A stretch of DNA of 64,000 bases from Rhizodiscina lignyota (Eukaryota): contig ML978129.1 of NCBI GenBank assembly GCA_010015805.1, positions 1,550,001 to 1,614,000 of the forward strand. The letters run 5' to 3'. The notes under the pieces are model-generated. The model was not told the origin of the DNA and searched no databases. It saw only the letters and a list, made by a program, of their open reading frames with translations. Positions 2,592 to 63,921 of the stretch are shown piece after piece (position 1 is the first letter of the stretch; each line of letters opens with the position of its first letter). Position numbers and translations under genes: made by a program.

Positions 2592-5500
2592 CTACAGGCT
2601 ATCGGGCGGACTGATGACGCCCATAGCGTCGTCCTTCTCCGGCTCCTTCTCCACTTCCTTCTCCGCTGGCATCTCTAGCCTGAGCTTCTTCTCGAGAGGG
2701 CCAGACTGGCTCTTCTCTGCGCTTCCGAGACCTCCTTCCGTGGTGGCCTCCTCCAACTTCCTCTTCTTCTTCGCCAACTGCTGCTGCTCCCGGATCGGTC
2801 GCTTGCGCGGACTCGTAATCTTGCCCGTTGGGGGCAGACGAGGCTTCGGGAAGCGTTGCTTGACCGGCAATTCCTCGTCCTCGACAAGGGGTTCGTCACC
2901 ATTCTGAAGCTTCTGTGAGAAGAAGGGGTGGACGAGACCAATCTCCGATTGTAGGTTGTGTGCCGTGATAGGGTCCAAGGGAGGCAAATCCTCCATAACA
3001 GCGCCGGTTGTAGTTACAGCACTGATCGCGATGTTAGTAAATGACCTATAAAAGATGTGATAAAGGTAGAACGTACCCAGGATTCTGTGATTGGTATGCA
3101 CTGTGCATCCTGTTCTGTAACAGATGGAGCGGGACGCTGAGAGATCTCAGGCCAAATTCCTTGTCCAATCCGAGTTCCTTGAATCCAAAGAAATCCACAC
3201 CCAATTCTTCGGCATAGTCGCCTCCGACAAATTGATCGCTACCGTCGTCAAAAGCACCAACACCATCTGCGCCAGCATTGTCACCGAGGGCCGGACGAAT
3301 AAGCTCAGCAAGGTGATCTTTCATGCGCTTGTGCATCACCCCCAGTTTCGAGCCCAGTCGCTCTATATCCTCCTTGACATAGGCTTCAAGGCCTCCAATA
3401 TCAACGCCGCTCGAGTGCAGAGCATGCAAGATTGCTTCTTCTTTGGTGAACTTGCTCTGGTATACTGGACGGCCAGCAGCGGTTGAAGCTTGCTTATCAC
3501 GGGTCTTAGGCTGTTCTCGGTAGAAGTTTAGTCCTCGGGTGAGTCGTTCGAAGAAGTTGCTCGCAAGGTCGGTGGCAGAGTCTAGCGCCGAGGGTTGGAA
3601 CTCTTCGTAACCGGAGTGATAGAAGATCTCCGCCACAGTACGCTGTAGAGCTGCTTTGCAGACGACAGGCGCGATTATGGGTCCCTCGTCGGACACCACG
3701 GTTGGCTCGATGTCTTGCTCGTGCAAGGGAAGCGGATTGTACTTCTGGAATTGATTTTGGTACATCTAAGTTGCGTTACTTTTCGTTGAGAGGGGGTGAT
3801 CAAAGTCTTACCTGTGACTGAAGTTGCATTTGCTTTACAATGCCAATCTTTGCACAGATCTTCCTTGTCTCTTGCATCGCATGCATGTTTCCTGCCATCT
3901 TCGACGAAAGGTTACCAGACGGTGCAATGAACTGACCCTTAGGCGCCAGCCGCAGAGTCTCTTCACAGTGGGTAATGACATTGCCATCAGTGTCTTCAAC
4001 CCAATCCAGGGCCTTGGGGAGGTCTGGCAGCGCAGACATGGTATCATAGTAATCAGGCAGGTATCCTTCCTCTTCCTCTTCCATCCCTTCTGCGATGGTT
4101 TCGCTGGGGATCGTTTGTACGCCGTCCATGTCATCAACTTGGACATCCGCCTCTTGTGAGCCCTCTCCCACCAAAGTTTTCTGATGTCTTAGCCAACGTC
4201 TCATGCCTGCCTTCCTTCTTAGTAACGCTGGAGCGTCTGGATTCAGCTTGTCTCCACGAAAGAGCTGGTGACGCCATCCGGCAACTCTTGCTCTTCCTTT
4301 CTTCGTGACTAGCTTCCAGACTTTGAGCTCCGGATCTTCAAAATCGATCTCTTCACCTTGCGCACCGGCGTTGTCGTATGCATTTCCTTCGGCCTCGGAT
4401 GCATCAGCCTGACTTCCGGGAGCAGCGCTACCCGGAGCTCCAAGAGGAGCAAGTGGTGTCAGCGCACCTGGTGATGCAGTTGCAAACCCATTCGTGCTGA
4501 CATCAGCGGGAGCTTCAGAGTCTGGTCTTAGAAACTCATTTCGAAGACTTGTTGACGGTGGAATGGTTGAACCACCGGGAGGCCTCGCCTCCGCTTCAGG
4601 TGTGCCTTCGTTCACGATAGGCGGTGCTTTCCGAACAGAATTGCCCTTCTTTGGGGCTTTGCGGCCTCTGGAAGCCATGAGTGGTTCCTCTTCCTCGCTC
4701 TCTTCGTCACCTTCTAAACCGATTTCCAGTTTAGCTTTCCTTCGCTCTTCTGCTTCGAAGGTCGCGCGATCCATGATGACAACATCGGGGACGTGTTGCA
4801 ACAGCTCTTCGCTGCGCTTGCGCATGTACAGAGCCTTCTTCCGAAGAAAGTGATTTGGGTCGGCGTTGTACTTGAGGCAGTTCGCCCAGATGAGATTCAA
4901 GTCGTCAACGAACTCTCGCTTAGATTTGTACGTCTGGCCGCGGAGTTTCTTGAACATTGAACCAATGTCCATTGGATGCTTGATGACCGAATAGTAATCG
5001 GGAGCTTCGCGCTTGTTAACCTTCTGCAGGAAGGGGCCAGCATATTCCGTTTCGGCCTTCAGGCTGTTGAGCACCTGCTCAGCTGCCTCGTATAACTCTT
5101 CTTGGTTCACTTTGTCGTCGCTTGCCCACTTGCTTCGTCCCTTTCGTACATCCCGTATGATATTACGGATCTCGGCGTCGGTCGCCTTGATCTCTGCGCG
5201 GCGTTCATCAATACGACGGAAGAGATTCTTCATAACAAGGCTTGTTGCGCCAAGATTGGTTGTACTGAGTGTTTCCAGTGGCGGGCCGGCCATATGGTTT
5301 GTAGATCCTGGAGCCGCTTGACCAGAGGTGTCCGCTTCGATCTGAGCCTCCATAGCATCTAACTTCTGCTGCTCTAACCACGCCGCCCTGTCATTCTCGA
5401 GAGTGTAGAAGTAGTTGTTGAACTCTTTCTTGGCAGCCTCTTCTGCTGCTTGTGCATCCTCGGCCGAGTCTTTCGACGCTTCTGGCGCGGCATTATCGAT

Positions 5501-6061
5501 CTCCATGCGGCCTTGAGCATCAGAGGCAGCTACCTGCGCCTGTTCCTGCCCGCTGGATTGGCCGCCTGCTCCATCAGCTTTGTCTCCTTCTTCTTCCTCT
5601 TCATCTCCGTAATCATCCTCGTCGATCACCCGAGCAGCTCTCTGCACCTGTGGAAGGGGAGCGGGAGGAGCGGGAATGTCCTCTTCTTCGTCATCTTCAT
5701 CTCCGTAGTCGTCCTCATCGATCACCCGAGCAGCTCTTCGAATCGGAGGGGGAGGTGCGGGATTGGCCGTGGATGGGCCAGTTTGGAATGCTCCATCATC
5801 GCGCGTCCTAGAGGTATTGTTTGCAGATGCTGCCGCCCCAACACCAACCCTCCTAGGGTTCTTGCTGCGAAGGAAGGCCGATAAACGCGCCGCACTGTTT
5901 GAAAAGCGCTCCTTGAATATGCCAATTTTTCGATCCATCGCTCGTGACTTCTCCTCCAACATGTCCACACCGGCTCCAATTCCGTTCGCGACCCTGTCCC
6001 CAGTGTTTGGTGTTCTGGCTGTCGCAATGGTTGGCAACAGCCATGGGCTGGTCGCGCTCAT
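2592..6061 (-). CDS. SPT7: SAGA complex subunit Spt7 (bromodomain plus C-terminal histone-fold)
   Basis: Bromodomain PFLQKVNKREAPDYYSVIKHPMD...DDLNLIWANCLKYN, conserved SKWASDDKVNQEELYEA, and DFFGFKELGLD...LSVPLHLL. Exons 6061-3812, 3765-3077 and 3021-2592, joined by GT-AG introns. Confidence 0.93.
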
Positions 6062-6493
6062 GCTTGGTCTTGGCGGACCCCTCGTGGTCGAGCGGCCTGG
6101 GTGCTCAAAACCTCACAGAACGCGTAGAACGCGTGTAGACCTGGAGAAATTTCGTAGCAGTGTTGCGCAGTGACTTCCGGTTGCTGTGGGCAGGTTTTTT
6201 CGATGAAATTCGATGGATGTTGGTCGGATGTCGTGATGCGCAACTGTTGTAAGTGCTTGGTCGTTCTTTCTGTTTTGGCAAGCGAGGCAGGCGCCATGGA
6301 GTCAGCCTGGGGCCCGGTATATTCCACAATCCCTGCAGGCTTGGCACCGATGTTTATCCGGCATTTGGCCGGCCCCAGCTTGCGGTAACTCCTCAGATGT
6401 GTTGCAGAAGAACAGCTTTAATACTCTCATTCATCCAGCCTCCACCCACTCTTGCAGTCATGAATAAACGGTAGTTCTTCGCCAAGCCGAAAA

Positions 6494-7350: not shown

Positions 7351-7799
7351 ATGAGTGCAGATTATCCCTGGGTCTTCCAGTGAATGTATTTGTAGCATAT
7401 GAACATCTTTTGGACTAACAACGGCAAGGTTGAGCTACGGCTTGACCAGGAGTATGGTCGAGATAACGCTCGTGAATGTCCGAAAGAGACGTTCTGGGAA
7501 ACGCGGGTGCTCATAGAGCGATCAATGTAACATATCCCTGATGATGTGGAGTATTTGGATACACCATTAATACACGCGTGTAATGTGGGGTACGAATATT
7601 TTCTCCTGCTCCAGTCTCCATGCCTGTTCGTTAAAATATCTCTGCTTCCGTCTTGACAATATCGCACGTGATCGAAGCTGTCCCTGGTCGCAGGTCGCCG
7701 AACGCCCGCTCGGCAAGCTCCGTTGCGGATTTCTCAAGCTCGAACGCGAAGACGCGTCTAGAAAGCAGCACATTAAAATACACTAATACACCTCACAAA

Positions 7800-9631
7800 A
7801 TGTCTTTCGGCGGCCAGACTCCAACTATCGTCGTGCTCAAGGAGGGCACTGACCAGTCTCAAGGACGAGGGCAAATTCTCAGCAACATAAATGCCTGCCT
7901 GGGAGTCCAAGGTGTTATAAAATCTACGTTAGGGCCTTATGGCTCTGATGTTCTGCTCGTGGATGGAAATGGGAGGCCCACAGTCACAAATGATGATAAG
8001 TCTATGCCTCGCACTGTATCAAAGTTCTTCTGCTGACTATACTTCACGCGCCACCGTTATGAAGCTCCTCGATATCGTGCATCCTGCGGCACGAATACTC
8101 ACAGATATCGCTCGATCGCAAGACGCCGAAGTTGGAGATGGAACAACATCTGTGGTCGTTCTGGCATGCGAAATACTCAAAGAGGTTCGAGAACATGTCG
8201 AAAATGGCGTCAGTAGCCGGATCGTTATCACTGGACTTCGAAGAGCATCGAATATGGCAGTCAACAAGATCAAGGAAATTGCTGTGAGCACGTCAGAAGG
8301 CAACCAGAGAGAGACTCTGCGGAAGCTGGCTGCTACAGCCATGAGCTCAAAGCTCATCCACCGAAATTCCGACTTTTTCACGAAGAGTAGGTTTATGGAA
8401 GACAACTCTCAACCGCTCAGGAGGCTAACATTGCATACACAGTGGTCGTCGACGCCGTGCTATCGCTAGACCAAGATGACCTGAACGAGAAACTCATTGG
8501 CATCAAAAAGGTCTCTGGAGGTGCCCTTCAAGAATCCCTGTTCGTAAACGGAGTCGCATTCAAGAAAACGTTCTCCTACGCCGGCTTCGAGCAACAGCCG
8601 AAATCATTCGACAATCCAAAAATTGTCTGCCTCAATGTTGAGCTTGAGCTGAAGTCGGAAAAGGACAATGCGGAGGTCAGGGTGGAGCAGGTTTCAGAGT
8701 ATCAAGCGATCGTGGATGCAGAGTGGCAGATAATATACAACAAGCTCGAGGCACTGCACAAGACTGGAGCGAAGGTGGTATTGAGCAAGCTTCCAATCGG
8801 AGACCTTGCGACGCAGTATTTCGCAGACCGCGACATCTTCTGCGCTGGTCGCGTAGCATCAGATGACATGGAGCGAGTATGCCAGGCGACGGGGGCATCC
8901 GTCCAGTCTACCTGTTCCGACATTCACCCAACACATCTCGGCACGTGTGAGCGTTTCGATGAGAGACAAATAGGAGGAGAGCGGTTCAACTTTTTCGAAG
9001 GATGTCCACAAGCGAAGACATGCACTCTAGTGCTCAGAGGCGGCGCGGAGCAGTTTATCGCGGAAGTTGAGCGCAGTCTGCACGATGCGATTATGGTCGT
9101 GAAGAGAGCAATCAAGAATCAGACGATCGTGGCTGGTGGAGGGGCTTGCGAGGTGAGATCATTGTTGCTTATTAGGGGTCCATGTCGACTGACAACTTAC
9201 AGATGGAAATCTCCGCTTACTTGCACCGGTTTGCAGACAAGAACATCCCACACAAACAACAGTCAATCATCAAGTCCTTCGCAAAAGCACTCGAAATAAT
9301 CCCCCGACAGTTATGTGATAACGCTGGATTCGACGCAACAGACTTGCTCAACCGTCTTCGCGTGGAGCATCGGAAAGGGAATACGTGGGCTGGAATAGAC
9401 TTTGTGCACGAAAGTGTCACGAACAATCTCGACGCTTTCGTCTGGGAGCCGGCTTTGGTGAAGGTGAACGCCATTCAAGCGGCCACTGAGGCAGCGTGCT
9501 TGATACTGAGCGTGGACGAGACGATCACGAACCAGGAGTCGGAGCAGCCGCAGGCTCCAAGGCGAGGACTTCCACCTGGAGCGGCGCAACGAGCATTAAG
9601 AGGGCGAGGAAGAGGCATGCCACGGAGATAG
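7800..9631 (+). CDS. CCT7: T-complex protein 1 subunit eta (cytosolic chaperonin CCT)
   Basis: Motifs [32 protein letters not shown] and VWEPALVK. Exons 7800-7995, 8048-8386, 8443-9152 and 9203-9631. The first intron is AT-AC. Confidence 0.95.
7996..8047 (+). other. Non-canonical AT-AC spliceosomal intron (U2-type signals) in CCT7
   Basis: Removing ATAAGT...GCTGAC...TTCAC (52 nt) joins ACA AAT GAT G|GC GCC ACC GTT ATG and restores the conserved TNDGAT motif. No GT-AG alternative restores it. Confidence 0.85.
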
Positions 9632-10349
9632 AGAAATAGCTCATTCTGTAACAGCATGCGTATGGCGCTCTTGGAATCGTTCAGCGGTTGCATCCCATTA
9701 AAAGTAGTACGTTAGACGTGTGACACGATACAATCGGTAGATACTGCGGATCAAAAAATTATATACCCCTACCGTACAGAATGGCCGTTTCTTACTGAGA
9801 TTGTGAAATGTCTTGCCGTTTCCTGTTGGTCATTGGGCTGTTGTCGAGGTGGGACCTTGGCGCTCGACCTGCTCACCTACCCTCAACTTCTACTCACGCA
9901 CCTTCATCTCACCAGACCAACTCCGTCGTCGGAAAACAGCCGTAACACGACGCTCGCCTTCTGATCCCTGATTTCAAAACGTGCAGCCAAACTTCATACC
10001 AACCGGCGTCTTTCGGAGACCCTTAGTTTCTTACCGGCAGACGGAAACTAAATCTTTGCGGGGACAAAGTGGATTCCCGTACCTGGATCCAGCAACAATC
10101 AGCAGTGCGGGGAGACTTCACGACACGGTGATATCATGGTGGTTCGCAGCAATACTACTCCGAGCTGGGAGGACATTCTTGTTACATAGCAATTGGAACA
10201 GGCAGAAGATGCAACGTTGATCCGGAACATGGGGAGATTGACAGGAACTTGAACCCTGACTCCAGGTGCCTTATAAGGGCTAAAAAGGTCACTTCTCCGC
10301 AATGTAGGCCTTCACAGGAAGTTTCTTAATTGATTTCAGCCTCGCAGCG

Positions 10350-12988
10350 ATGGGACTTTCAAAGGCTGCTCTCACTTTCTTTTCGCTCTTGCAACTCTCA
10401 GCTTGTCAGGTTGATTACTCTCAATATGTCAATCCTCTCATTGGCTCCTCCGGCCCTTTCGAAGGGCAAGCTTTTGGTGGAGGTGATATTTTCGTCGGCG
10501 GTGCCCTCCCATTTGGTGTCGCAAAAGTTGGCATTGATACTGCAGAGGCAAATCTCAGTGAAGCAACCCTGAACGGAGGATACACGCCAAAAGGAAAAGT
10601 CACAGCCATCAGCATGATGCACGAATCCGGGACGGGTGGCTCCCCGAAGTATGGAATCATTCCTCAGATGCCCCTGACGACCATTAAGCATCCAGTCAAC
10701 TTGTTGGATAACAGGACGTACTGGCAAGAGAGGGTGGGCGACGATACAGCTCAGGTCGGGTACTTCAAGACCAAGTTTGAAAGCGGCGTTACCGTGGAGC
10801 TCTCCGGCAGTCGGCACGCTGGTATTATGCAGTACTCATACCCATCCGGCAAGCAGTATGTTCTCGTGGACGTATCACACGTAAATAATATATAATATAC
10901 CCACCTCCGCTAGTAGCTGCTGATCAGTTGCAGTATCTCCCAGATGGGCTCGGCGGTTACTCCGACCAGTACTACATCGGTGGTGAGATCCATGTTGAAT
11001 CTAATCGAAGCCAGTATACAGGTTACGGAACTTGGATAGGCGGCTGGAATGGTAAGGAACTGCAAAGACTAGGTTGCTAAAGGTAGCCGCTAATATTGCA
11101 TCAGAGGGGGCGCCATACACTGTATACTTCTGTGGCGAGTTCGAGCAGGCTCCCGATGAGGCCCAAACATTCCGTGGACGCAATACAGATCCCATCCGAG
11201 GCTTCCACACATTCAGCGACCAACCAATTGCGCAGGCAATACTCGGAAATGTGTCTGAGGCATCAGGTCCCCTTAACGACAGAGTTGGCGCACTTTTCAC
11301 CTGGAATGGCGATTCAGGCTCAACCGTACGATCTAGAGTCGGCATATCTTTCATTTCGTCTGAAAAGGCATGTATGTTCAAGAACACGGAGATTCCCTCC
11401 TGGAATCTGAACACTACCGTTAGTGCTGCAGTCAAGGAATGGAATCAGGACGTCTTCTCGAAAATCAAGGTCCCCACGGATGATTCTGCCAACCGCACAA
11501 ACCTCGTACTCCTGTACTCCTCCTTATATTTCATGCATCTGATGCCCTCTGATCGGTCTGGCGAGAATCCACTCTGGGAGTCATCTGAACCCTCCTGGGA
11601 TGACTTTTACACAGCTTGGGACATCTTCCGATGCACTGTGAGCTTGTATCATATACTACAACCTGTCTATTACGAAAGCATGATCCGCGGCCTCATCGAC
11701 ATTTGGCGATTCGAAGGTTACATGCCTGATGGCCGATCCGGCAACTACAACGGTCTCGTTCAAGGAGGCTCGAACGCTGATAACATCCTGGCCGATGCAT
11801 ATGTCAAAGGCCTCCGAGGCGCCATTAACTGGACTGATGGATATGCTGCAATGAAAAAAGATGCTGAAGTTCTTCCTTACAACACATTCAGCCCGAATGA
11901 CGAGACGTCAAGCGTCAAAGAGGGAAGAGGTGCTCTCTTCGACTGGATACCGCTCGGATACGTGTCGGCCGATCGGACTTACCGACCAGTCTCTCGAACT
12001 GTCGAATACGCTCTTAACGACTTTGCTCTGTCCCAAGTGGCCAAAGGAGAGGCTCCAGGAGATGTGCAGAAATACTTGAAGCGGTCCGCGGGCTGGCAGC
12101 TGATTTGGGCACACAATGCTACAAGCATCGATACCTCCCCTAAATTTACAGGCTTCCTTGCACCTAAAAATGCAGACGGCAGGTTCAACATCACTGACTA
12201 CAACCCAGCCCTCTGCGGCGGATGTGAATGGTCCGACATATCGTACGAAGCGACCCCATTCGAATATAGTTTTACCATCCCCCACGATCTCGAGACGCTC
12301 ATTCAATTTATGGGCGGCACAGCGAGTTTTGAACGACGCCTTGACTACATATTCCAGCCCAACACATCGCAGCAGAATCTGGGCGCCAACGGCGCTGGAA
12401 TCACCACGATCATGTGAGTCATTCTGTGAGAGCAGGAGCAGAGACTAACTCCAGAGCTGTGCTAATTTGTGTAGGAACATTGGTAATGAGCCCGACTTTG
12501 CCACGCCGTATCATTACAACTACATCAACAAGCAGTATAAGAGCGTGATGCGGGGTCGCGCTCTGGCGAATGAGTTCTTCCACGATGCGGACTATGGCGT
12601 ACCCGGTAACTCTGATGCGGGTGCGCTAAACAGCTGGCTCATATGGCAGATGCTCGGCATGTATCCGATTGTCACGCAGCCTGTGTATCTGATCGAGTCG
12701 CCGTGGTTCAACGACATCAATATCACAGTTGGGGCGAATAAGACGCTCCGGGTCACTGCTAATGGACTTGGGCAGGATAGTTACTACGTTCAGAGCGTGA
12801 AGATCAATGGCAAGGACTGGAACAAGAACTGGTTCGAGCACGATGACGTGATGGCGAATGGCGGCACGATTGAGTTCAATTTGGGGAATAAACAAACGAA
12901 GTGGGAGACAGGTGATGTACCACCGAGTCCCGGACATATGGTACTGCCAACTTCTTCCAATGGATATCTGAATGGCACTTCGAAATGA
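10350..12988 (+). CDS. Secreted glycoside hydrolase family 92 alpha-mannosidase
   Basis: Signal peptide followed by YVNPLIGS, HESGTGG, WDIFR, QGGSNADN, SRTVEYA, GNEPDF and PGNSDAGAL motifs. Three short GT-AG introns at about 10881-10933, 11052-11104 and 12414-12474. Confidence 0.92.
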
Positions 12989-24856: not shown

Positions 24857-25001
24857 AAGCTGGCCGCATTTGCTTTTGCGAAGCTTCATCGTCATTCCGC
24901 TTCAACACCGCAGCTATCGCAGCTACTAAATACCTCATCAATCCCACCCTTCGAAGCCCGTGTAGACATCAGAGAGTCTCCCACACTGCATTGCCCTCAA
25001 A

Positions 25002-27744
25002 ATGCTCTCTGCTACACGGCTTTCGGCCGCGAGGGGCCTCTCCGCGAGAGGCCTCGCGAGCTGGCAGCGAGGCATGGCCACCGTCTCTGATGCTCCTCTC
25101 TCCAAGAAGGTCGAGATGACGAATTGGGAGAAGGGCCACTACATCAACTACCAGAAGATGGCCGAGAACCTCTCCATCGTTCGTTCGCGCCTCAACCGCC
25201 CTCTGACCTACGCCGAGAAGATCCTGTACTCCCACCTCGACGACCCGCACGGCCAGGAGATCGAGCGGGGCACTTCCTATCTCAAGCTGCGTCCTGACCG
25301 TGTCGCATGTCAGGATGCCACTGCACAGATGGCAATCTTGCAGTTTATGTCTGCGGGCATGCCCTCAGTCGCCACACCGACGACAGTGCACTGCGATCAC
25401 CTTATCGAAGCTCAAGTGGGCGGGGCAAAGGACCTGGCAAGAGCACAAGAGATCAACAAGGAGGTCTACGACTTTCTGTCTACATCATGCGCGAAATACA
25501 ACATTGGTTTCTGGAAGCCTGGTTCTGGCATCATTCATCAGATCATCCTCGAGAACTATGCGTTCCCAGGTGGTCTGTTGATCGGTACCGACTCTCACAC
25601 GCCAAATGCAGGTGGTCTGGGAATGGCCGCCATTGGCGTTGGTGGTGCAGATGCTGTGGATGTCATGGCCAACTTGCCCTGGGAATTGAAGGCCCCTAAG
25701 ATCATCGGCGTCAGACTCACTGGCAAAATGTCTGGCTGGACGGCACCAAAAGGTAAGGTTCTTCCTTGGCAAAGACCATACACATCCTTGCTCGAATTTC
25801 GAAGTGTGGAAGAGGCCAATTGCATAAGTCTAACGTTCTGTACAGATATCATCCTCAAGGTTGCCGGTATCCTCACCGTTAAGGGCGGCACAGGCGCAAT
25901 TGTCGAGTATCACGGCCCAGGAACTGAGGCACTCTCCTGCACAGGCATGGGTACGATTTGCAATATGGTAGGCCCTTTCTGTTGCACCTGCACATATACT
26001 TGAGTTTTCCCAAGTTGGCGTAAGCCACACAAGCGGATCCCACGTTTATGCGGATCAACGCTTAGTGCTCCAGGCCAGAAGTTATTCTCTGGTGCAAGTA
26101 TAAATCTAACAAGATGCTAATGTGCTATATCTAATCTTAGGGCGCTGAAATCGGTGCAACAACATCTCTCTTCCCCTTCAACGACCGCATGTACGACTAC
26201 CTTGCAGCTACCAAGCGCACGGCAATTGGCGACTTTGCGCGTGAATACGCTGCCGAGCTTCACGAGGACAAGGGTGCCGAATACGACCAGCTCATCGAGA
26301 TTAACCTCTCCGAGCTTGAGCCTCATATCAACGGACCATTCACACCCGATCTTGCCACTCCGATCAGCAAGTTCAAGGAGGCTGTCAAGGAGAATAAGTG
26401 GCCAGAGGACCTTAAGGTCGGCCTGATTGGATCCTGCACCAACTCCTCGTATGAGGACATGTCGCGTGCTGCTTCCATCGCAGAGGATGCCATGGCCCAT
26501 GGTGTCAAGGCCAAGTCTATGTTCACCGTCACACCCGGTTCGGAGCAGATCCGTGCCACTATTGCTCGCGATGGTCAGCTCAAGACTTTCGAGGAATTCG
26601 GCGGCATGGTTTTGGCCAATGCCTGTGGTCCTTGCATCGGTGCGTAAATTTGATTTTCTTCATACCTTCAATGCACTAACGACTCTTCTACGGCAGGGCA
26701 ATGGAATAGGACAGACGTCAAGAAGGGCGAGGCAAACAGCATCATTAGCTCTTACAACCGCAACTTCACCGGCCGCAACGACGCCAACCCTGCCACCCAC
26801 GCCTTCGTCACCTCTCCAGATCTTGTCGTCGCATTGACCATCGCTGGTACGCTCAACTTCAACCCCTTGACCGACAAGCTCAAGGACAAGGATGGCAACG
26901 AATTCTTGCTCAAGGAGCCATCTGGAGAAGGTCTGCCCAAGAACGGCTTTGACCCAGGCCAGGACACCTATCAAGCACCGCCTGAGGATCGCCACGCCGT
27001 CTCCGTCGCTGTCTCCCCAACCTCTGACCGTCTGCAAATTCTTGAGCCGTTCGACGCTTGGAATGGGAAGGATGCGCTGGACATGCCAATCTTGATCAAA
27101 GCACAGGGCAAGACGACTACTGATCACATCTCCATGGCCGGACCCTGGCTCAAGTATCGTGGCCATCTCGACAATATCTCCAACAACATGCTGATCGGCG
27201 CGATCAACAGCGCCAACGGCGAGGCCAACAAGGTGCACAACTTTACGACAGACGGGTGGGATGCCGTACCGGCGACCGCCAGAGATTACAAGAAGAAGGG
27301 CATCAAGTGGGTTGTCATTGGTGACTGGAACTATGGTGAGGGTAGCTCGCGTGAGCACGCAGCTTTGGAGCCAAGGCATTTGGGTGGTTTGGCCATCATT
27401 ACCAGGAGTTTTGCGCGTATCGTATGTTTCCTACTCCCTCCTAACGTATCTATCAAGTACCACTAACCCTCAAACAGCACGAGACCAACCTCAAGAAGCA
27501 AGGCATGCTCCCACTTACGTTCGCTAACCCAGAGGACTACGACAAGATCCAACCTGACGACAAGGTCGACCTGCTGTGCACGCAGCTCGCTGTCGGCAAG
27601 CCCCTACCCATGGTCGTGCACCCCGCTGACGGCAGCAAGCCGTACGAGGTCGAGCTGCAGCACACCTTTAATGAAGGCCAGCTGGAGTGGTTCAAGAACG
27701 GTTCGGCGCTGAACACGATGGCGAAGAAGCATGCCAAGAAATAA
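25002..27744 (+). CDS. ACO1: Mitochondrial aconitate hydratase
   Basis: Presequence followed by [55 protein letters not shown] and [10 protein letters not shown]. Four introns at about 25753-25845, 25968-26140, 26640-26696 and 27422-27477. Confidence 0.97.
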
Positions 27745-29632: not shown

Positions 29633-31711
29633 ATGCCATCTCTCGGTATGCAAGCATCATGTTTCTCCTTCGAGAGCTCCTTGCTGAAATTCGCATAGCT
29701 ACTGCCATCCTCGGCCTTCGCCATGACCCTCGCCTGCTCAAACTCCCGCCGTACCTTTCTGCTCTGTGCATTCTCGTTGGCACTGTCTGGCTACTCCTGT
29801 TACCACTGAACGAGTACTCTCGACAGACATACGTGTCTGAAAACGCGCTTCTACCAGGCCAAGTGCACACGTACTTTGGAGGAAGCGAGCATAATATCTT
29901 TCGGGCGTATAGACATGAGGTGCACGCGTTAGAGCACAAGTCGGCGGAGGAGTATGTGTAGCTCCTGCCATGAATTGCTGGCAGAAGATTGTGCTAATGG
30001 GTTGAGTGTAGGCGCACTGAGAAGTTTGTGGAGCTGTTAAAGGACTGCGGTCTGAAAGTCGGAAGACAGAAATATGAGTATTCTTCTGCGGGCAACACGG
30101 TTTCTGGAGAGAATGTGTACGCCGTACTCCAGGGACCTCGCGCAGATGCGACTGAGGCAATTGTCCTGATAGGAGCATGGAGAAATATGGACAATGTCAT
30201 CAACTATAGCGGTGTGGCATTGGTTCTCACTCTTGCTCGTTACTTCAAAAGTCAGATATTCTGTCAAGGAGATGCTGAACAGTGCTTATATATTGTATAG
30301 GATGGTCACTATGGTCGAAGGATATCATCTTCCTTCTACCATTCGACAGTGCATCCGGGTCCCAAGCCTGGGTCGATGCATATCATGATGCTCACGATCC
30401 TCTCCACGTGCAGCCTCTGTCAATCAAATCGGGCGCTCTTCAGGGTGCCATCGCGGTGGATTATCCCGCAGGGCCATGGGGCCATCGATTCGAAAAACTA
30501 CATATCGTATACGATGGTGTGAATGGCCAACTACCTAATCTCGACCTCTTCAATACGGCTGTCAACATTGCTTCTGGCCAGATGGGAATCGGTACCACCC
30601 TGCAGCGCATGTGGCACCACTCAGACAGCTACCGCGACCGTCTCATGACGATGCTACGCGGAATGCTTTCTCAAGGGCTCGGGCACGTGTCTGGTCCGCA
30701 CAGTGCGTTCATCCCGTACCATGTCGATGCTATCACGGTACAGACTGTCGGTGACGGCTGGCACGACGAGATGAGCCTTGGTCGAACGGTGGAGAGCTTG
30801 TGCAGGAGCTTGAATAACTTGCTTGAGCACCTGCATCAGAGCTTCTTCTTCTACCTCCTCATGCAGGCAAACCGTTTCGTCAGCATAGGGACGTATCTCC
30901 CTAGTGCAATGATCATTGCTGCAAACTTCACCATTACGAGCATTGTTCTTTGGGTACAGAGTGGGAGGCCTGCTGCACCGTCGAAAGTGGCTTCGACCTC
31001 AAACTCAGAGAAAGAGAAAGCAAAAGAGCCTGACTTGACGATTGTCAAGGAAGGTCGGAATGTTGCACTCGTGCCAGCTGCAGCTTTCGAAGTCATAGAG
31101 CGCCATCTTTTCCTCCCAGTCGGCTTCATCGCAACGGTCCACTTCCTCGGCCTCCTGCCACTCTACGTCTTTAACACCGCACCACAAGCAGTAAGTCTAT
31201 GATATTTGAATCCTTATTCTCAGATATACTCACCTTTTCCTCATAGACGCTCAAAGCCTCCTTCACAATATTCACCATCTTGACCCTCGTCCTGCCTCAC
31301 GCCTTCTCCCAAGCGCTGGCTCGCATACCTCCGCAACCACCAACTCCCCAACAAATCACTCTCATCCAATCCTTCTCGCTCCTACTCCTCGGCCTATTCC
31401 TCTCCGCGCTCGCAACTTTAAACTTCTCACTCAGCCTCATGATCGGCCTACTATCTACACCATTCTCCTTCGTCCGGCCGTCCAAGTCACCCATTCTAGT
31501 CGGCTTGATGAATCTGCTATTAGCAGCGATGGCACCGCCTGTAGTCATGGGCGGCATCGCATGGTGGTTTGGCAAGGACGTCGGAGAGCTGCTGGCCCAG
31601 GCAAGCTTTGGGTGGCATGTTTGGGGCATGTGGACGCAGGTAGTGATTTGGCTGGTCTGGTGGCCGGCGTGGGTTACGGCGAGTGTGGTTGCCATTGGGG
31701 CTTTGTATTAG
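29633..31711 (+). CDS. GAA1: GPI transamidase component Gaa1
   Basis: TYVSENALLPGQ, GENVYAVLQGPRADATEA, WSLWSKDIIFL, GVNGQLPNLDLFN, RSLNNLLEHLHQSFFFY and a multi-TM C-terminus. Five exons. Confidence 0.93.
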
Positions 31712-31980: not shown

Positions 31981-33184
31981 TCAGGCTGCCCAGACATCCT
32001 TGCCCACTCCCTCAATCCAGTTGCCCAAGCTATTCACACTAGCATCCCACTCCTTCAGCCTTACCCTCATCCCCTCGATCTGCCCCTTATCAAGCACCTT
32101 TGGCTGCACCCAATTGATCCGCGCCACCTCCGCTACCTGATCAATCGTTCCTCTTAGAAGCCCCAGGCTCAGCGCCTTCATGATCAGGTGCTCAATCTCA
32201 TCCTTCGGTACCTTCGTCTCCTCGCCTATCGCCTTGAAGGTCATCGTGCGGCTCTGCGGTGGCCGGCGGAATACGGTCTCGGTGAGCGCGGAGAGCGAGA
32301 TTTTCATGTAAAGGAACTTCTTATGCTCTGCAAGCAGCGAGTTTTTCTCCATGTTCGCAGCTAGGATGTCGTACGCGCCGAGGTCGCCGCGGTTAAAGGC
32401 GAAGAGGAGCTCGCGTAGCCAGGCGTGGGGCGTATAGGTTAGGGAATCAAGGATCGGGTGGAGCAGCAGCTCGCCGAAGTTGTAGATCGTCTCAGAGACC
32501 AACGCGGCGATAGACAAGTCGTGTGCGCGCGAGACGCGGTCTTCTGCGGGGAGGGTAGCGAGGTCGATGCAGGCGAGGTAGAGGAGGGCGTTGCGGTAGT
32601 AGGCGGCGAAGTCTTGCTTCTGCTTGTAGTAGTCTGCATTGACGCGGTAGAAGGACGCATGCACGACAGTCTCGACGGAGTCAAAAGAGTCGAGGATGCG
32701 CTCGCACTCATCGAGCTTCTTTCGCGAATCGTCGAGCGCGCCGAGCTGGAGTTGTATGTTGGCTACGGCAACGGTGGCGTAGACGTAAGCGTCTTGTGAG
32801 GCAGGTTTGTTGACCTTGTCGGCGAGCGCAGTACAGAATTCTAGGCGCTCCTTGTCACCTGCAGATTCCGTTAGTTGCTTTGCCACATCATCAAAGTGAT
32901 AAACACATACTTTGACACTGTGATGCTGCACTCAGTCCCAACGTGACCAGCTTGAGCTGATTTATCTTGTCCGCGAAGCTCTTGATGAAGGTGTCATAGA
33001 GCGGTATTCGCTGTGGTGCGCTCTGAGGTTGATTAAAATACTCGATCAGAGCTCCAGTCAGCTCGTGCCACAGCTTTCGTTCCCAATAGTCTTCGAACTG
33101 GAGGAAGTAGTGCTGGAGTTCATCAGGCGCGGCGTCTCGCTGGTCTGCGAGAAGGTTTGGGATGGTGTCGACGTCCATAGACAT
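31981..33184 (-). CDS. RPN9: 26S proteasome lid subunit Rpn9 (PCI domain)
   Basis: WERKLWHELT, IYNFGELLLHPIL and EIEHLIMKALSLGLLRGTIDQV...WVQPKVL. One intron at about 32860-32911. Confidence 0.93.
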
Positions 33185-39484: not shown

Positions 39485-40811
39485 CTATTTGTTATGAGGA
39501 CGTTGCTGCAACAGACTTCCCCATTGGTTAGGTCTAATATAAAGATTAGCTCCAGAACTTCTTTCAAATCTCCGAACCGAAGAGAGAAATTACTCACCTA
39601 ACAAGTAGCCGCTCAACAAGTGTCAGAATGCCTCGCTCACGCTGCTCATTGCTCGCCTTGACAGTAAGGGCCAACCACATGCCAAGATCTTTCCTGATAT
39701 CGGCGACGGGACGTCCCACTACATCGATGCCTCTGTCGATTGCTGCGAGGCGTACTTCCTCGTCTCTCAACTTCTGAGGTGTCACCATGGAGTTGTATCC
39801 CGCATCGAAGAGCTGCACATCGTCATCATGCAGATATTCGAGGTACATCCAGCATCTATCAGGGACGTTGTAGAAGTTCTTAAGTACGTTAAGGACCGGT
39901 AGATCAAACATTCGAGGATAGAGATTGCAGCTCCGCGCGATGTGATTGAACACCTCTGGATCAAGCTGGCTCGTCCTGACTGTTGCAAGTCGTTCGCCAT
40001 GCGATTCCTTGGCCACAATCTCACTCGTTGCGCCTTTCAGGAGTTCAGGGCTCGGCACCTTGCCGTACACACCTCGAAAGCTCTTCAGTCTTCGATCTTC
40101 AATCTTCTGGCGCTGTTTTCGTATCTGCCAAGGAAGCCGGCAAGGCAAGGGTATTATAGGCGTGGCGTAAAGAAAGATGATTGGAAACCATTCTCCGAAA
40201 ACGATGAATAATATAACGAAGAGGGGAAGGCGTCGCGTCGCGGCTCTTTCTCTCGTCAGAAGATGTCTTTCAGCTCTTGTCTCGCCCCAGTGTACATCAT
40301 ATAAAGGTGTTGACTTCCCTCCAGGCAGAGGTCTGCTCCAAGATTTCAGCCGAAACTGAAGGGTAGGCTTTTTGACACCCCATTCCTGCGAGAGAGATGT
40401 CACGGTTTTGCGATTTGCACGAATGTTCCTCCAGCCCGTCTTGTAGAATGTCAAATACACCTTCCCAACTTTCAGCAACCATATCAAATAGTTTTGGCCT
40501 GGTTCTCGTGCGGGAACGTCGAGAGGCGCGGGCAAGGTGGATTCGGGCGGGTTGATGCACTCGTCGTATTCATGGACTGCGTTGTCCGTCGCAGTGGTGC
40601 GAGGTTTTGGGCTATTTACGGAGCCTTTCTGTACTGTACGAGCGGTAGAAGCGCGTCGAGTCGCGTAAATTTGTCGATGCTGTGGTTCTCGCCAATTTAC
40701 CTGAGCGAATGCAAGCGCAAAGGATGGCTGGAGAAGTCCTGTTCGAGGACATGTTGAGAAGCAAAGCTGTCCTTGGAGTGCCTTGACGGCGATTGGGTGT
40801 CGGAGGATCAT
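39485..40811 (-). CDS. LETM1-like mitochondrial inner-membrane protein
   Basis: INPPESTLPAPL, GKVYLTFYKTG, RRLPLFVILFIVFGEWFP, YLEYLHDDD and EVRLAAIDRGID. A short last exon (RPNQW...) follows a GTGAGT intron at about 39535-39597. Confidence 0.75.
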
Positions 40812-41520
40812 TGCATCAGGTTGACTGTTGAGGCCAGTTGTCCCAGCTGTCGCCAAAGCTGCTGGTAAGAAGGACCAAGCGTGATGTCAACCATTCCCGA
40901 ACTTTTCGAATACGATACGGCATGTTCCGCTCCAAGCAAGCCGCACTTCCAACATCAGCAAGCCCATAAGCCACCACGACTATCTGTTCGAGTTGAACAT
41001 ATTTCCACTGGTCACAAGCAATTGTGGGTATCAGAGTATACAACAGCCGACCTACGTTGACGCAGAATTTTAGACCTAATGGCTAATATGTATGATCAGT
41101 CTCCTGCCTTACTCAAACGCACTGCTGGGAGAAAGTCAAACTACTGGAAAGCCCTCTTCAAACTTAGTAATGGTATGGATGAAATGGATTGATCACATAG
41201 GAGAGATACTCCAGGTGAAGACAACCCCACCCGCGACCATTGAAGCAGGAGCCCGTGAGCACAAATTTCTTGGTATTTAACAGTTTCACTCAACCGACGA
41301 GTACCGCAACACTGTTACCCGACGCTATGCTATACATACTCTGCACAATTCCAGCCATTTACTAAATGATACATACAAGAACAAAATTCTAGATTCGCGG
41401 CCGTCCCTTTTGAACACTCTTCTAAAGCCAACCACTCAAAACCATGAATGGGAAATTCGTTGGGCCCGTTATAAGATACAACGCCTGTGTCAAATGCGAC
41501 ATCGTCTAAGCTCAACGCGT

Positions 41521-44307: not shown

Positions 44308-47300
44308 CTACAGGGACCGCTTCTCAGTCCATTCCTCGTAGCACTGGACCTGATCTCCGACTCGGAAGTCTTCCCAATCCTCAAACGCTAGGCCGCAGTC
44401 AGAGTCCTTTCGCATTTCTGTGACGTCTTTCTTCTTGTTCTTTAGTGAGGTGAGAGATCCTGCAACGAGTTAGTTTATTTGATGCCCGGTATTATAATAC
44501 TCATATTAGTGACAGAACGCACCGTTGTAGATGACATCTTTCCCACGCAGAACGCGGACTTTCTTGCCCGTCGATATCATACCATTCTTAACCTTGCAGC
44601 CCGCAATCTTGATGAAATGTCGCTTCTGATCATTGATGCTGAAAGACTGAAGGACTTCCGCCTCACCAGTGACCTTCTGATGGACAGTGGGAGCAAGTTT
44701 GTCACTAAGAATTGATTTGACCGCGTCGGCGAGGCGATAAATGATGTTTTGCTCGATTATCCCAACACTCTTCGATTCGGCCAACGGTCGCACACCTGGC
44801 TCAGCAGTTGTGTTGAAAGCGATAACGTAGCCTTGAGCAACCGCAGCAAGGTCGATGTCGTTCTGGGAGATGGGACCAACTCCTGAGCGCAAAATCTCAG
44901 GCTGGACCTCGCTGTTTCCCAGCGATGCTACTGTATTGAGGACGGCCTCGACAGAGCCAGAAACATCACCCTTGATGACGAGATATACCTTCTCTGGGCC
45001 GCTGGACTGTACTTCAGCTTTATCCTCTGGGCTCTGAGTTGCTTCTTGATCAGTAGCCTGGCCCTTGGCGGCCCGTTCTTCCTTTTCGCGCTTCTCTTGC
45101 TCTCTTCGTCGAGCTTCGTTTATTGCCTCCGTATCCTCGGCCATTTTAAGTTGCTCTTGTTTTGTCAGGCGGAGGTCCACAACTTCCGTGGCTTTCTGCT
45201 CGGTTGGGGCTTGTAGAAGCTCATCTCCTGCAACTGGCTGATCCCTCCATCCATCTACTTCGGCAGGCATGCCAGGTCCGACCTCCTCGACTAAAGCGCC
45301 CGCTTCATTCTTCAGTGTTCGCACGCGTGCCCACGTCGCTCCAGCAACGATGATATCACCAGGTCTGAGGGTGCCACTACGAACCAGGACCGTCGCAACA
45401 CGCCCATTACTCTTCGTTGATGACTCAAGAATCCAGCCTTCGACGGAAGATGACGGGTCCGCCCGATGGTCAAGGATCTCGGAAAGTGTGACCACTGCCT
45501 CTTCCAGCTCTTCCATACCCAAACCCGTCTTTCCACTAACATAGACAGCTTGCGTATCACCTCCTATGTCTTCGATTTCAACACCGTGTCGAGCCAGATC
45601 GGATTTGACACGTTCCGGAGCAGCATCTGCTTTGTCCATCTTGTTAATGGCGACGATCATTGGCACATCCGCAGTCTTTGCATGTTTGATTGCCTCCAGT
45701 GTCTGTGGCATCACGCTGTCATCAGCAGCGACAACCAGAATCACAATATCGGTGACATTGGCGCCACGTTGACGCATGCTGAGAAAAGCCGCGTGCCCAG
45801 GGGTGTCAAGGAAGGTGATTGACTTTCCAGACTCAAGTAGAACATTGAAAGCACCTATGTGCTGGGTTATGCCTCCATGTTCGTTGGCAGCGACGGAAGA
45901 CTTTCGCAGAAAGTCAAGAAGTGTGGTCTTCCCGTGGTCGACATGTCCCATGATGGTCACCACGGGAGGTCGTTGGGGAAACACAGACATATCTTCGGGT
46001 AGAGGAGCGGCGCGTAGGTCATCGTCTGCGCTCTCAACAACGGGCTCGAAATTGAACTCCATAGCAATGAGGCCTGCATTCTCCGAATTGAGAACGTGAT
46101 CATGGCTCAATTCTCCAAAACCGAGCTGCTTCAGCTTTCTGTCGAAGTTGCGCGATGGAACGTTCAGAGCGGTGGCGAGTTGACCGACGCTTATGAATTC
46201 CGGGATGTTTATGGGTCGTGGTTGATCTTTCTGCACTTCTGATCTTTCTTGACGCCGCATGTCCTTTTGCCGCCTTCTTTCCTCTCGTCCTGCGTTTGAC
46301 AGTGCCATTAACGCAGCCTCTCTAGCATAATTGATATTACGTGTTTTCCGGCGATCGTTATCAAAGCGCTTCGGAGCAACATCATTTGCATCATCGCCGA
46401 ATCTCGAAGATAGACTTCGGCGATTTTTGGACTCTTCTCTGGTAGCACCCCAGTATGGGTCGCTAGTGAGGACGACGTCTGGCTGCTTCGTGCCCGATAT
46501 GTCATCTCTTTTTTGTCTTGACTGATCGGCTAGTCCAAGGGGACATTCGGATTTTCCATGGCCTAGTTCACCGCATCTGTGACAACGAATCTTCGACCTC
46601 GGCTAATAAAATCAACTGAATTAGCGCATTGATTGCCGGACAATGTGTTGGTATGCCTACCTCAAAGCCAACAAATTGACCATCCTTCGCACGCAGCTGG
46701 CGTTCCTGAGACTCTCGAAGATAGGCATCTTGCGCAGTGGCTTGCGCTTCGGGACCGTCTCCGCCAAGAAACATCCGTCTGATCCTCACCGGGCGTTGCG
46801 CCTTGTCGTCTTCCCTGCGAGTGACAATTGGTTGACCGTCTTGCTGCTCTGAGTCTTTCTCTGAGGAATTTCGCCTCTTCAAGTGCGCCCATTGTGCCGA
46901 TATATTCCGGCTGATTTGATTTGTACGTGGTTTTTGGGGGAAAGCTGGGTCTGTTCGAGAGGGCGCATCACTGGCCCGACCCTCAGTCTCCATGAAACGG
47001 ATACGATATTGGCTCTGCCCTTGTTTGCTTCTCTGGTCGGATGACCTTGAGGCTCCCTGTCGGTTCCCACCGTTGTCTGGACTCCTTCCTTTGAAGACAT
47101 TGCCAAACAGTGGGTTATCCGAGTGCGGGATGTATCCATTGGAAGCTTGTTTTCTTTGAGGTTTCTCAGTACTAGCTTGTGTCCTTAATCTATCTCGTGC
47201 TCGTAGTTCATCGGGCGTCAAGAAGTCATCGGAAGGAGCAGATCCCCAAGAACGCCTTTCACCTGTCCATTGAGGACTATTCTGGGGTGTAAAGTCGTTA

Positions 47301-51700: not shown

Positions 51701-52693
51701 GTCCCTTTGCTGCTGCGCACGCCTTCTGCTGGTCATCCACAGGTGACACCCAGCACACCCCAACGCAACGCAACCAGGAAGAGCCGATCGACCAACTGCG
51801 ACGCGCTGCTTCGTCCGGACTCAGCAGTCTGCTGCAACCGGCTCTTGTCACCGCATCTCCGGGCCGTCTGGATCTTTGGATGAAGCTTCTGCGATGATTT
51901 GGGCCGACAAACACGCTCCCTTCAGGCGGGAATCTCGTGCTGCCTCACCACCAGCCTCTTCCTGAACAGAGCATGGAAGGCTTGCCTGTTTCGCTCCGGC
52001 GTAATCGATGAGCTCTCACTCCTTCGCGGGTGCCGGGATCTCATCTCGCTCGCTCGGATTAGCAGAGAGTCAAGCAGAGCGTACCCTGGATGCGTGCATG
52101 AAGGCCCGCATTGGCGCAGCTCACAGCAGCCAGTCGTCGCAGGACGTCCGCTGTGCCAGGTGCTGCATTCCTACCCGAGCCCAGCGCCTTTCTGGGGCGT
52201 CGAATGGCGAATTCGACGCTTGTTTCGGCGCGCAGGAAATCCCACGGCGACTTGCTGACTGGGGGCAGTTGCAAGCCGAAAGAGCGTGCGTTGCTGAGTC
52301 TCGCTGAGGACAGGATGGTGTGTGGTGTGGGTGTGGTGTGCTTCGCTGCAGTGGGGGGCCCCTCCCTTTGCGCCGGGACCTCCTCCCACCCTCCGCCTCT
52401 ATCGATTACAATATGAAGCGGCAAGCATCTCCCAGCTCTACTTTTCCTGAACCTCGCCACTCTGTCCATTCCGTCCAACTTCTTCTGCCGATCCAGGACG
52501 GCTCTCCCGCCGTCTTTCATATACCAGATCGCTCCTCGGTATATCTGGCGATTGCTATAACCCGCCCACACCTGATCTGTTTTCCTGCGGCTCCGTCCGC
52601 TTGGCCCGATCCGGCTCTGCCACACCGCCTGGCGATTCAACAGCCGACACCGGCCTCACATTCACAATATTAGGAGGCCTCCGTTGCCAAATC

Positions 52694-54843
52694 ATGGCTT
52701 TCCAGGCCAATCTGGACTACAAGAACGCACCTGGCTCGCGTCTAGCTCTGAATCATCAACAGCATCACCAGAAACCACCGCAGCCTGGAGCTTTGCTGGT
52801 CAGCGACATTGACGCACTCGACGACTCAATTTTGGACTCTGCCATGATTTCGCCGGCGAGCGCTGGTGACAGGAGGGACTCCTTTGCCAACAGCACAGCT
52901 CTGTTCTCACCGCAGAGCACCAATTGGGAGGATTTCTCCGCTCCACCGATGGATCGTACCCAGAGCTTGTCGAATAATCCATTCTTCGAGCAGAACAACA
53001 ATCCATACACACGCCTGGAGAGGCCTCATATTGCGACCTACAGTCAGCAACCGTCTTCAACATGGCCTCTCGTTGATCGCACAGCCGATTCTCGGACGCC
53101 ATTCGGGCATCAGGCACATGACGCATATGCCAGTGAGTTTGAGCCAGCGCAACCCTACATGGGAAATGGCTCGAGCGCGACGTACAATGGACTGCCAAAT
53201 ATGCCGAGCAATGTCAGGCCCAGCTCAGTGTTCCCGCCAAATACTCAAGGCATTGACACGCCTAATGCTCTCTCACCTGCACCCGGAGACAAGTGGATGC
53301 AATTCAGCGACATTGAACGACAACCAATACCAAAAAGGATGAGACAGAACAGTCCACCGCGCCCCTTCTCACCTTCCTTTCCAAGGATGCGTGGTGATGG
53401 GATCCGTAAGAAGAATGCTCGGTTCGAGATCCCTCCTGAACGGAACCTCAATACCATCGATAAGATGATCTCGGAAGCCACCAATGATGATGAGATCAAG
53501 GAACTCAAGCAACAGAAGCGACTCTTAAGGAATCGACAGGCAGCGTATGTCTTCCTCTCAGCACACAAGGCCATCCATCCTCGAGGCTCCACATTTGGTA
53601 TACCGATCCACGTTGGCTAACTTCTCCTCACAGACTTGATTCCCGACAGCGAAAGAAGAAGCATACTGAAGAGCTCGAAAAGGAGAAGCAAGGGTGGCAA
53701 GAGCGCATGGCAATGCTCGAGGAAGAGGTCACTAACTTGCGCCTTCAAGCGGACGCTTTCACAATGGAGCGACGTGATTGGGAACAACAGATGATTCAGT
53801 CGCAGGATCAAATCAGAGCTCTGATGTACGAGAAGGAGGATATGGTCGTCGAGCATACTCGTGAGACGGGTGAACTTCGAAAGAAGGTTAATGTGCTCAC
53901 GGAGAAGCTCAACGCGAGAGCCTCTGCTCCTGCCACCGTCACACCGAACTCGACCGACTTCGCTGACTTTGCTACCGAGATGAATGGCTTGACAATGGAC
54001 CAGGACGAGTGGAACAATTACATCTTCGTCGACAACATGTTCCAGGATCAAGATGGCGCTCCGCAACACCCACCTCAAAGCAACGCTCTCGTTGTTGCCT
54101 CAAGGCCCAAGCAACAGCAACCGATCATTGCCGACGCCGAGAAACCTGCGGCTGCTTCTGGCCTCCTGCTGATGCTGCTCCTTTGTGGTGCCTTCTTTGC
54201 TAGCAAGTCGTCTGGCACTCAAGCATTACCAAAACTTCATATGCCTGATGAGGTCCGTGCCGAAGCTGCCAACGTGCTTGACAATATCCTCAAGGAAGGC
54301 TCGCACTCCGCCGGAAACGCGCATGCAACAGCACACCATATGATCGCCTCTCAGGTTAATGCAATGGAGCCCGGGCCATCCGGTGTCGCTACCGCCGCAT
54401 GGCAGCCCAAAGCTACGTTGTCGGGTGCCGAGTTCGCATCGATATCTAACCCGTCCGGTCTCGGCATCGACGACTCCACCCTCGGGCAGATGCATCACAA
54501 TCTCGTCATGCCGACAAAGGAGCAGGAGGCTGAACAGCTGTTCGGTCTTACCCCGAATCAGTACAACAGTCTGACTACGACCGAGTTCAATCGACCCGCG
54601 TACAACATGCAAGATTCGCCGCCAGCAACCGATGAAGCCAGCACTAGTCCTACAAGTGGCAGGAAGACATTGGCTCAAGCATTGCAAAATAGGCATGACG
54701 AAGCATGGACTAATGGCAAAGCCGCTGTCTACACGAGAAGTTTGCTCGGCGAACAGATCCCTGCTGACATTGTGAGGGAGTTCCAGAGGATTGTGCAACA
54801 GAGCGGCGATGCTGGTGAACAGAATGTCAAAAGTGAGGCTTGA
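52694..54843 (+). CDS. bZIP transcription factor (resembles the Neurospora ADA-1 class) with a post-zipper hydrophobic segment
   Basis: GIRKKNARFEIPPERNL...KQQKRLLRNRQAA/LDSRQRKKKHTEELE basic region across an intron at about 53545-53633, followed by a long coiled coil. Confidence 0.88.
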
Positions 54844-63647: not shown

Positions 63648-63921
63648 AGTGGCCCAAGTTTTTCTAGTGGCGCTTAAAGTTTGTGACACCGTATGGCATA
63701 CACAAAGTGGCAATCTCCGATCTGTAAAGGAAGGTAATAGACGATTTTCGACGGGTTATGCATTGTATGGCATGCGATATCAGAAAGTTTCGACAGATGT
63801 TCAAATTTTCTGAATCGGGGCTAGCGCATTTTCCCGCCAAGCCCGCAGGTCTTCGATCCCGACAGCAGCACAAACTCGGAGCAACAGCACAGCTCTGATC
63901 TCCCCTCCACTATCATCAGCC

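Follow-up and report, generated by a model that had tools for sequence, protein, structure and literature searches.

The stretch of DNA analysed here (the window) comprises 64,000 nucleotides (nt) of contig ML978129.1 from the Dothideomycete fungus Rhizodiscina lignyota, positions 1,550,001 to 1,614,000 of the forward strand. Between 7800 and 9631 of the window, on the forward strand, lies a four-exon gene for CCT7, the TCP-1 eta subunit of the cytosolic chaperonin. The joined exons form an open frame of 557 amino acids. Exons 1, 2 and 3 align to residues 1-65 (E 4e-24), 67-180 (E 1e-35) and 183-417 (E 9e-121) of yeast Cct7 (4v81_G), and for each of these exons the yeast and mammalian eta subunits match first, while the other CCT subunits score far lower. 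Exons 1 and 2 thus cover yeast Cct7 up to residue 65 and again from residue 67, so that exactly one residue, a glycine whose codon is split, is absent from the two pieces. Named CCT7 orthologues share 92% identity with exon 3. Introns 2 and 3 are ordinary (Table 1). Intron 1 begins with AT and ends with AC, and it is the subject of this work. We argue that it is very probably a natural U2-type ('type II') AT-AC intron, removed by the major spliceosome so as to join 7995 to 8048.

Table 1. Features of the CCT7 gene and of its surroundings; positions are those of the window.
Feature	Position	Strand	Remarks
CCT7 exon 1	7800..7995	+	ATG at 7800; last base is the first base of the Gly66 codon
CCT7 intron 1	7996..8047	+	52 nt with AT-AC termini; phase 1, within the Gly codon of TNDGAT
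5' splice site	7996..8001	+	ATAAGT (GTAAGT with A at +1); sequence
Branch-site motif	8033..8037	+	CTGAC; branch A at 8036, 11 nt from the last intron base
In-frame TGA	8034..8036	+	ends translation if intron 1 is retained
3' splice site	8045..8047	+	CAC (AC terminus); sequence
25-nt GT...AG 'mini-intron' of P0002	8000..8024	+	excision reproduces the public model; breaks the TNDGAT motif
K/L site of the intron of other ascomycetes	8064..8065	+	uninterrupted in the window, whose own intron site is 17 nt upstream
CCT7 exon 2	8048..8386	+	starts with GC of the Gly codon; includes GDGTT
CCT7 intron 2	8387..8442	+	56 nt, GTAGGT...CTAAC...CAG, ordinary
CCT7 exon 3	8443..9152	+	yeast Cct7 match (E value in text)
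CCT7 intron 3	9153..9202	+	50 nt, GTGAGA...CTGAC...CAG, ordinary
CCT7 exon 4	9203..9631	+	stop codon included; C-terminus agrees with homologues
Bromodomain protein	3046-6112	-	long frame, match
GH92 mannosidase	10308-12417	+	long frame, match
Aconitase-family protein	24966-27466	+	long frame, match
Gaa1	30279-31202	+	long frame, match
Rpn9	31981-32931	-	long frame, match
Mitochondrial IF2-like GTPase	44506-46602	-	long frame, match
CBF/Mak21	62088-63755	-	long frame, match

The position of intron 1 is dictated by the protein. In TNDGAT, the motif of the nucleotide pocket, the intron divides the Gly codon as G/GC, with exon 1 ending in ACA AAT GAT G and exon 2 starting with GC GCC ACC, and the intron itself reads ATAAGT...GCTGAC TATACTT CAC. 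We enumerated all excisions with GT-AG, GC-AG or AT-AC ends and a donor at 7900-8040 that keep the frame open into exon 2. Among the 107 excisions of this kind, one alone (1/107) restores the TNDGAT motif, the removal of 7996-8047. Nor can this junction be shifted, because 7995 is a G where 8047 is a C, and 7996 is an A where 8048 is a G. An earlier, sequence-only reading of this stretch had given the same coordinates and letters, and had claimed that no other removal recovers both the frame and the motif and that the unspliced frame stops at 8034-8036; all of this agrees with what we find, including the TGA at the stated stop. From the sequence, intron 1 appears to be obligatory for an intact CCT7.

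Although these boundaries are set by the protein, they still carry TAAGT at +2 to +6 and a CTGAC with the A at 11 nt before the 3' end, and they enclose 52 nt, so the match of intron 1 to splice signals is more than chance. The same picture emerges from a comparison with 35 orthologous introns of relatives. Donor bases +2, +3, +5 and +6 of intron 1 are the majority bases (T, A, G and T) of these introns, their branch-to-3' distance has a median of 11 nt (n=31, range 7-20; 11 in intron 1), and their lengths span 49-83 nt. No repeats or introner-like copies were found around intron 1, and its 52-mer is unique in the 64-kb window at up to 3 mismatches. The frame of exon 2 is open backwards across the whole of intron 1 into exon 1 (7933-8469 on the forward strand, 178 codons from stop to stop), and the same backward-open frame is present in a relative, P0159, at least from the end of exon 1.

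Intron 1 has the sequence features of the U2-type AT-AC class, that is, AT...AC termini, a U2 donor apart from +1, the usual branch distance, and termini that are kept in orthologues. Its ATAAGT is the consensus donor of U2-type AT-AC introns as given by Gould et al. (PMC5029451), and for Sheth et al. 2006 (PMC1557818) what marks the class is a donor that is a good U2 site except at +1. The latter authors report 24 such introns among about 610,000 in five species, describe them as preserved in orthologues, and mention U2-type AT-AC introns hypothesised in xylanase genes of filamentous fungi. They also describe that the change of the first G to A is rescued by a change of the last G to C in yeast and human, 'although less efficiently' (PMC1557818). 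Both the mutual suppression of these two changes and the presence of major-spliceosome signals in intron 1 had been put forward in the sequence-only reading, and both are borne out by these sources and by the ATAAGT donor and CTGAC branch site, there being no ATATCC.

We propose the following route for the removal of intron 1. U1 and U6 would recognise the donor, which is perfect apart from +1, and U2 would pair with CTGAC. In the second step an A-C pair would replace the usual contact between the first and the last G, as in engineered yeast and human introns; it is the suppression seen with A1/C-last introns that suggests this step. Precise removal of 7996-8047 would then complete the Gly codon of TNDGAT. 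The fungi in which the intron would be fixed form a small, Dothideomycete-like clade, and its position there is lineage-specific.

Two sequencing runs match the gene, X1 (share 1.00) and X2 (share 0.05). A read-based contig of run X1 (12,367 nt, word depth 155) has 0 differences from the window over 7700-9700; this contig may be the source of the window itself, and an error at depth 155 is still excluded. Run X2 is unrelated, and its 171-letter record has 0 differences over 7913-8043, a span that includes A7996 and stops before 8047. Sequencing error at the termini of intron 1 is therefore excluded, and the termini are in addition conserved in relatives, as described below; the suspicion that an error would be unlikely, voiced from the sequence alone, was well placed. 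The X2 record is unspliced and the type of its library is uncertain, so it is uninformative on splicing. It consists of a 131-nt piece identical to the window with 20 letters on either side, which resemble sequencing adapters. The rest of the gene is absent from this 2025 run, in which the organism is seemingly present at trace level.

The close relatives of the window share a signature in CCT7, VLACE...ENGVSSR, where outgroups have VLAGE...EQGVSSQ. This clade consists of the window and six distinct fragments, which are 94-96% identical in exon 2. The fragments are open reading frames called on raw contigs that run into introns, and we used this read-through to read the intron ends of the relatives. 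For P0159 it is the open exon-2 frame that makes the ends readable from a protein fragment: P0159 reads through the whole intron as MMISLAFSDISTFEANIKVR, followed by ATVMK. Its intron has the same span as that of the window, 17 codons and 1 base, or 52 nt. Ile-Ser-Leu at intron positions +1 to +9 is common to P0159 and the window, and since Ile is encoded by ATH the intron of P0159 begins with AT. Further on, both have Ala13 and then Asp or Asn, encoded as GCT GAC in the window and as GCN AAY in P0159, which fits CTGAC and CTAAC, both forms of CTRAC. The straddling codon 18 is Arg in both, xGN with x being C or A, and hence the last intron base of P0159 is not G. The remaining 12 interior codons of P0159 all differ from the window. 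Conservation that is confined to the three splice signals is the signature of an intron and not of coding sequence.

Two exon-1 fragments, P0122 and P0123, are 92% identical to the window and add to the view of the donor. In the exon-1 frame, read-through after TND gives DKSMPRT in the window, DEYPM in P0122 and DKCPRLNTGFKS (DKCPRLN) in P0123. The Asp after TND must come from G/A[TC], so that intron position +1 is A in both P0122 and P0123. The codons after TND fit ATAAGT in P0123 and ATGAGT in P0122; a GT donor would give Gly. P0159 differs from P0122 and P0123 in the codons that follow, which means that at least three relatives besides the window share A at +1. The flanking exons are 92-96% identical among members of the clade, unlike the residues read through the intron. 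Judged from these read-throughs, the odd termini appear to be conserved across the clade and not to be an error. The intact 557 amino acids, the 92% identity of exon 3 and the ATVMK codons kept in P0159 together indicate that the gene is under selection and would need the 7995/8048 junction.

We also considered exon-2 fragments that start with 'MKLLDIV' as a mark of the same architecture in many lineages, and rejected them, as the non-clade ones match loci in which TNDGATVMK is uninterrupted. Such fragments start at the first ATG, which leaves P0004, P0160 and P0281 from the clade ambiguous when taken alone. Two clade fragments, P0004 and P0280, run from MKLLDIV straight over the position of intron 2, and P0004 also over that of intron 3, yet neither is joined to exon 1. 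They may come from relatives with few introns, or be transcripts in which splicing is partial and the AT-AC intron alone is left.

The public record for this gene looks different. Protein P0002, a 566-amino-acid hypothetical protein of Rhizodiscina lignyota whose exon 3 is 100% identical to ours, is reproduced when a 25-nt GT...AG segment (Table 1) is excised in place of intron 1. This mini-intron has no CTRAY motif and is about half as long as the shortest related intron (49 nt, n=35). TNDGATVMK, which its excision breaks, is found whole in 90 of 121 sequences compared, the other 31 being mostly N-terminally truncated fragments. We judge the mini-intron to be an annotation artefact, a predictor's repair, in line with the earlier expectation that gene predictors would miss intron 1. 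The public CCT7 model is wrong at the catalytic-site motif, and predictors that allow tiny GT-AG introns and no AT-AC introns will repeat the error in relatives.

Might the transcript nonetheless be spliced at canonical GT-AG sites, giving a variant CCT7? The mini-intron used by P0002 and a 49-nt intron at 8016-8064 are both open and in frame, and the latter has a plausible length and ends where the intron of other ascomycetes ends. We consider such splicing improbable, since both options destroy the widely conserved TNDGATVMK and the residues they add are unconserved, with 12 interior codons changed in P0159 and DKSMPRT in the window set against DKCPRLN and DEYPM in its relatives. The mini-intron is moreover too short by the standard of related introns and without a recognisable branch site, and the 8016-8064 option discards the ATVMK codons that are conserved in P0159. 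An intron of the U12 type, removed by the minor spliceosome, comes to mind because AT-AC termini in animals and plants are most often U12-type. For intron 1 this is very unlikely. The donor is ATAAGT and not ATATCC(TT), and the relatives read D-K or D-E after TND, where ATATCC would give D-I. The branch-site consensus of U12-type introns is TCCTTAAC-like and lies close to the 3' end, whereas the 3' part of intron 1, TTCTGCTGACTATACTTCAC, contains CTGAC, nothing resembling a U12 branch site and no TCCTTAAC-like motif. The minor spliceosomal RNAs are reported to be lacking in Ascomycota (PMC2396436), and a further survey reports convincing minor introns in neither Ascomycota nor Basidiomycota (PMC10639083). 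The reported absence of the minor spliceosome from this fungus is taken from this literature on Ascomycota as a whole, which agrees with the claim of the sequence-only reading about Pezizomycotina. A scan of the window with Rfam at gathering thresholds gave 0 matches and no small nuclear RNA, though 64 kb is uninformative on the minor spliceosome.

The two unusual bases fall exactly at the splice termini and no canonical public model could be built, which might suggest that 7996 and 8047 are errors of sequencing or assembly, or that this copy is a pseudogene. This explanation is already largely refuted, and we give it hardly any weight: the depth-155 contig is identical over 2 kb, the unrelated run X2 has A at 7996, at least three relatives share A at +1 and one of them has a non-G last base. 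A dead gene is further contradicted by the 557-amino-acid frame, which is otherwise intact and highly conserved, and by the single protein bearing the name Rhizodiscina lignyota among the 120 CCT7 homologues listed. It is equally hard to believe that the 52 nt are bypassed by translational hopping or removed by some other RNA-processing activity outside the spliceosome. Nothing direct speaks for such a route, while conservation in relatives falls exactly on the 5' site, CTRAC and the last base and nowhere else, and in length and branch distance the segment is like the spliceosomal introns around it.

We therefore prefer removal of a U2-type AT-AC intron by the major spliceosome, and there are several points that count against it. 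We infer both the splicing itself and the identity of the spliceosome, starting from the observed sequence, the uniqueness of the excision and the conserved termini. The termini of the relatives are in turn derived from protein read-through and not from DNA; in P0122 and P0123 base +2 may be T or C, and in P0159 the last base may be C or A and the base before it is not readable from protein. The pairing of P0122 with P0279 and of P0123 with P0280 as fragments of the same contig is based on equal lengths and a shared source only. The spliced 557-amino-acid form was not found in the protein collection, and P0002 is the sole member of its cluster there. Engineered introns with A1 and a last C splice less efficiently than wild type (PMC1557818). 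Finally, in an essential gene either change to a GT-AG intron would do harm on its own, and a GT-AG form at this site was not found.

This last point leads to the question of how the intron arose. The related DNA consists of 80 metagenome loci among the matches listed; contigs of the clade may lie beyond this listing, and within it there is no member of the window's clade, the best locus reaching 88% identity in exon 2. At offset +18, between K and L (the K/L site), a phase-0 intron of 49-83 nt is present in 35 of the 80 (L006-L009, L013, L017-L044, L046 and L049). It is GT-AG in 32 and GC-AG in 3 (L009, L018 and L019). Another 39 loci, some of them transcripts, have no intron between TND and LLDIV; 5 are unscorable and 1 is without exon 1. 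At the window's own site (offset +1) an intron occurs in 0 of the 80 loci listed. The exon-1 fragments (n=37) tell a similar story. In 27 of these TNDGA[TS]VMK is continued and followed by V (25) or A (2), which corresponds to GT or GC donors at the K/L site, 3 are uninterrupted, 1 ends at a contig edge and 4 break earlier. A D after TND is found in just 2 of the 37, and both are members of the clade (P0122 and P0123).

A GT-AG intron at the window's site was thus seen neither in the 80 loci listed nor in the 37 exon-1 fragments, and a GT-AG ancestor at this site is unsupported because elsewhere the intron is either located 17 nt downstream or missing. The sequence-only reading had described a natural compensatory AT-AC U2 intron. 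The description as natural and U2-type is well supported; the origin from a GT-AG intron through two changes is not, and the orthologue comparison that was to show when GT-AG became AT-AC at this site gave 0/80 and 0/37 for a GT-AG intron there.

The displacement from the K/L site is 17 nt, which is not a multiple of 3 as intron sliding would have it (PMC2891723), and the protein is unchanged. A segment of exon has effectively changed sides of the intron. Comparison of the intron interior with the 35 K/L introns is no help here, as the best score was reached by 262 of 300 shuffles and the relatives compared are so distant that homology is not thereby put in doubt. The old intron may have been lost and a new one gained nearby, or the intron may have been transposed, and neither route explains the AT-AC ends. 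Parallel gains near old positions by introner-like elements have been described in Dothideomycetes (PMC4457414). We tentatively raise the idea, which we think unlikely, that the AT-AC ends arose together with the relocation of the intron and not via two compensating point mutations in an old GT-AG intron. The relocation would have involved loss of the ancestral K/L intron and the appearance of a same-sized, 52-nt intron 17 nt upstream with the protein unaltered, a scenario that we hold with similarly low confidence. If true, the relocation would be a dated natural case of the birth of a U2-type AT-AC intron. In that event a presumably slower second step could throttle CCT7 output via intron retention, given the in-frame TGA at 8034.

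The neighbourhood of CCT7 consists of ordinary fungal housekeeping genes (Table 1). Four further long frames in the window (39594-40886, 52451-54843, 56796-57638 and 60489-61349) match nothing in Pfam at E 1e-5.

Taken together, and as far as sequence can tell, intron 1 of CCT7 appears to be a real, conserved and newly found case of a known rare class. In the literature searched on AT-AC introns in connection with xylanase, Dothideomycetes and chaperonin, we found no mention of the CCT7 intron; individual introns of the RNA sequencing (RNA-seq) surveys may be listed in their supplements. Few intron classes are rarer than that of the U2-type AT-AC introns, of which not many natural examples exist. 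The CCT7 intron offers a clean example from nature: its host gene is essential and has a single function, and the group is one reported to lack the minor spliceosome. Its termini are conserved in the clade while its interior is free to change, and the sister state is a GT-AG intron 17 nt away. This makes it well suited to studies of the origin of A1/C-last introns and of how well they are processed by the major spliceosome of fungi.

The closest known counterparts are the AT-AC II introns of animals, such as those of human SCN4A and SCN5A and of TAF2 in human and Drosophila, described in PMC1557818. Like these, the CCT7 intron has AT and AC ends on a U2 donor, /ATAAGT, is kept in orthologues and is very rare. 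It differs in lying in an ascomycete group reported to be without the minor spliceosome, in its 52-nt length and CTRAC branch site, in its chaperonin host gene and in its lineage-specific position, and for CCT7 it is the sequence that points to the major spliceosome. The same terminal pair is found in the engineered yeast and human introns with first-G-to-A and last-G-to-C changes (PMC1557818; Parker and Siliciano 1993, cited in PMC5029451). Those are laboratory mutants of reduced efficiency, whereas the CCT7 intron is natural and appears fixed and conserved in an essential gene.

Further AT-AC introns are on record for ascomycetes, that is, from fungi without U12 splicing. In addition to the xylanase genes mentioned above, AT-AC junctions were seen by RNA-seq in other Pezizomycotina, namely in F. 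graminearum (PMC3577648) and in T. longibrachiatum (69 of 14,305; PMC4324775), and AT-AC introns make up 0.03% of the introns in SnowyOwl models (PMC4084796). The nested RPL30 AT-AC intron of S. cerevisiae is a minor isoform of 1-2% with a non-consensus donor (PMC5029451), and the surveys, in the accounts cited, give counts only. By comparison, the CCT7 intron would be constitutive by necessity, with a consensus ATAAGT and apparent conservation in a clade. In its position it resembles the near intron pairs of Lehmann et al. 2010 (PMC2891723), in which a widespread and a lineage-specific position lie less than 32 nt apart and are never occupied together. It is unlike intron sliding as treated by the same authors, in that the shift of 17 nt is not a multiple of 3 and that the new intron carries AT-AC ends.

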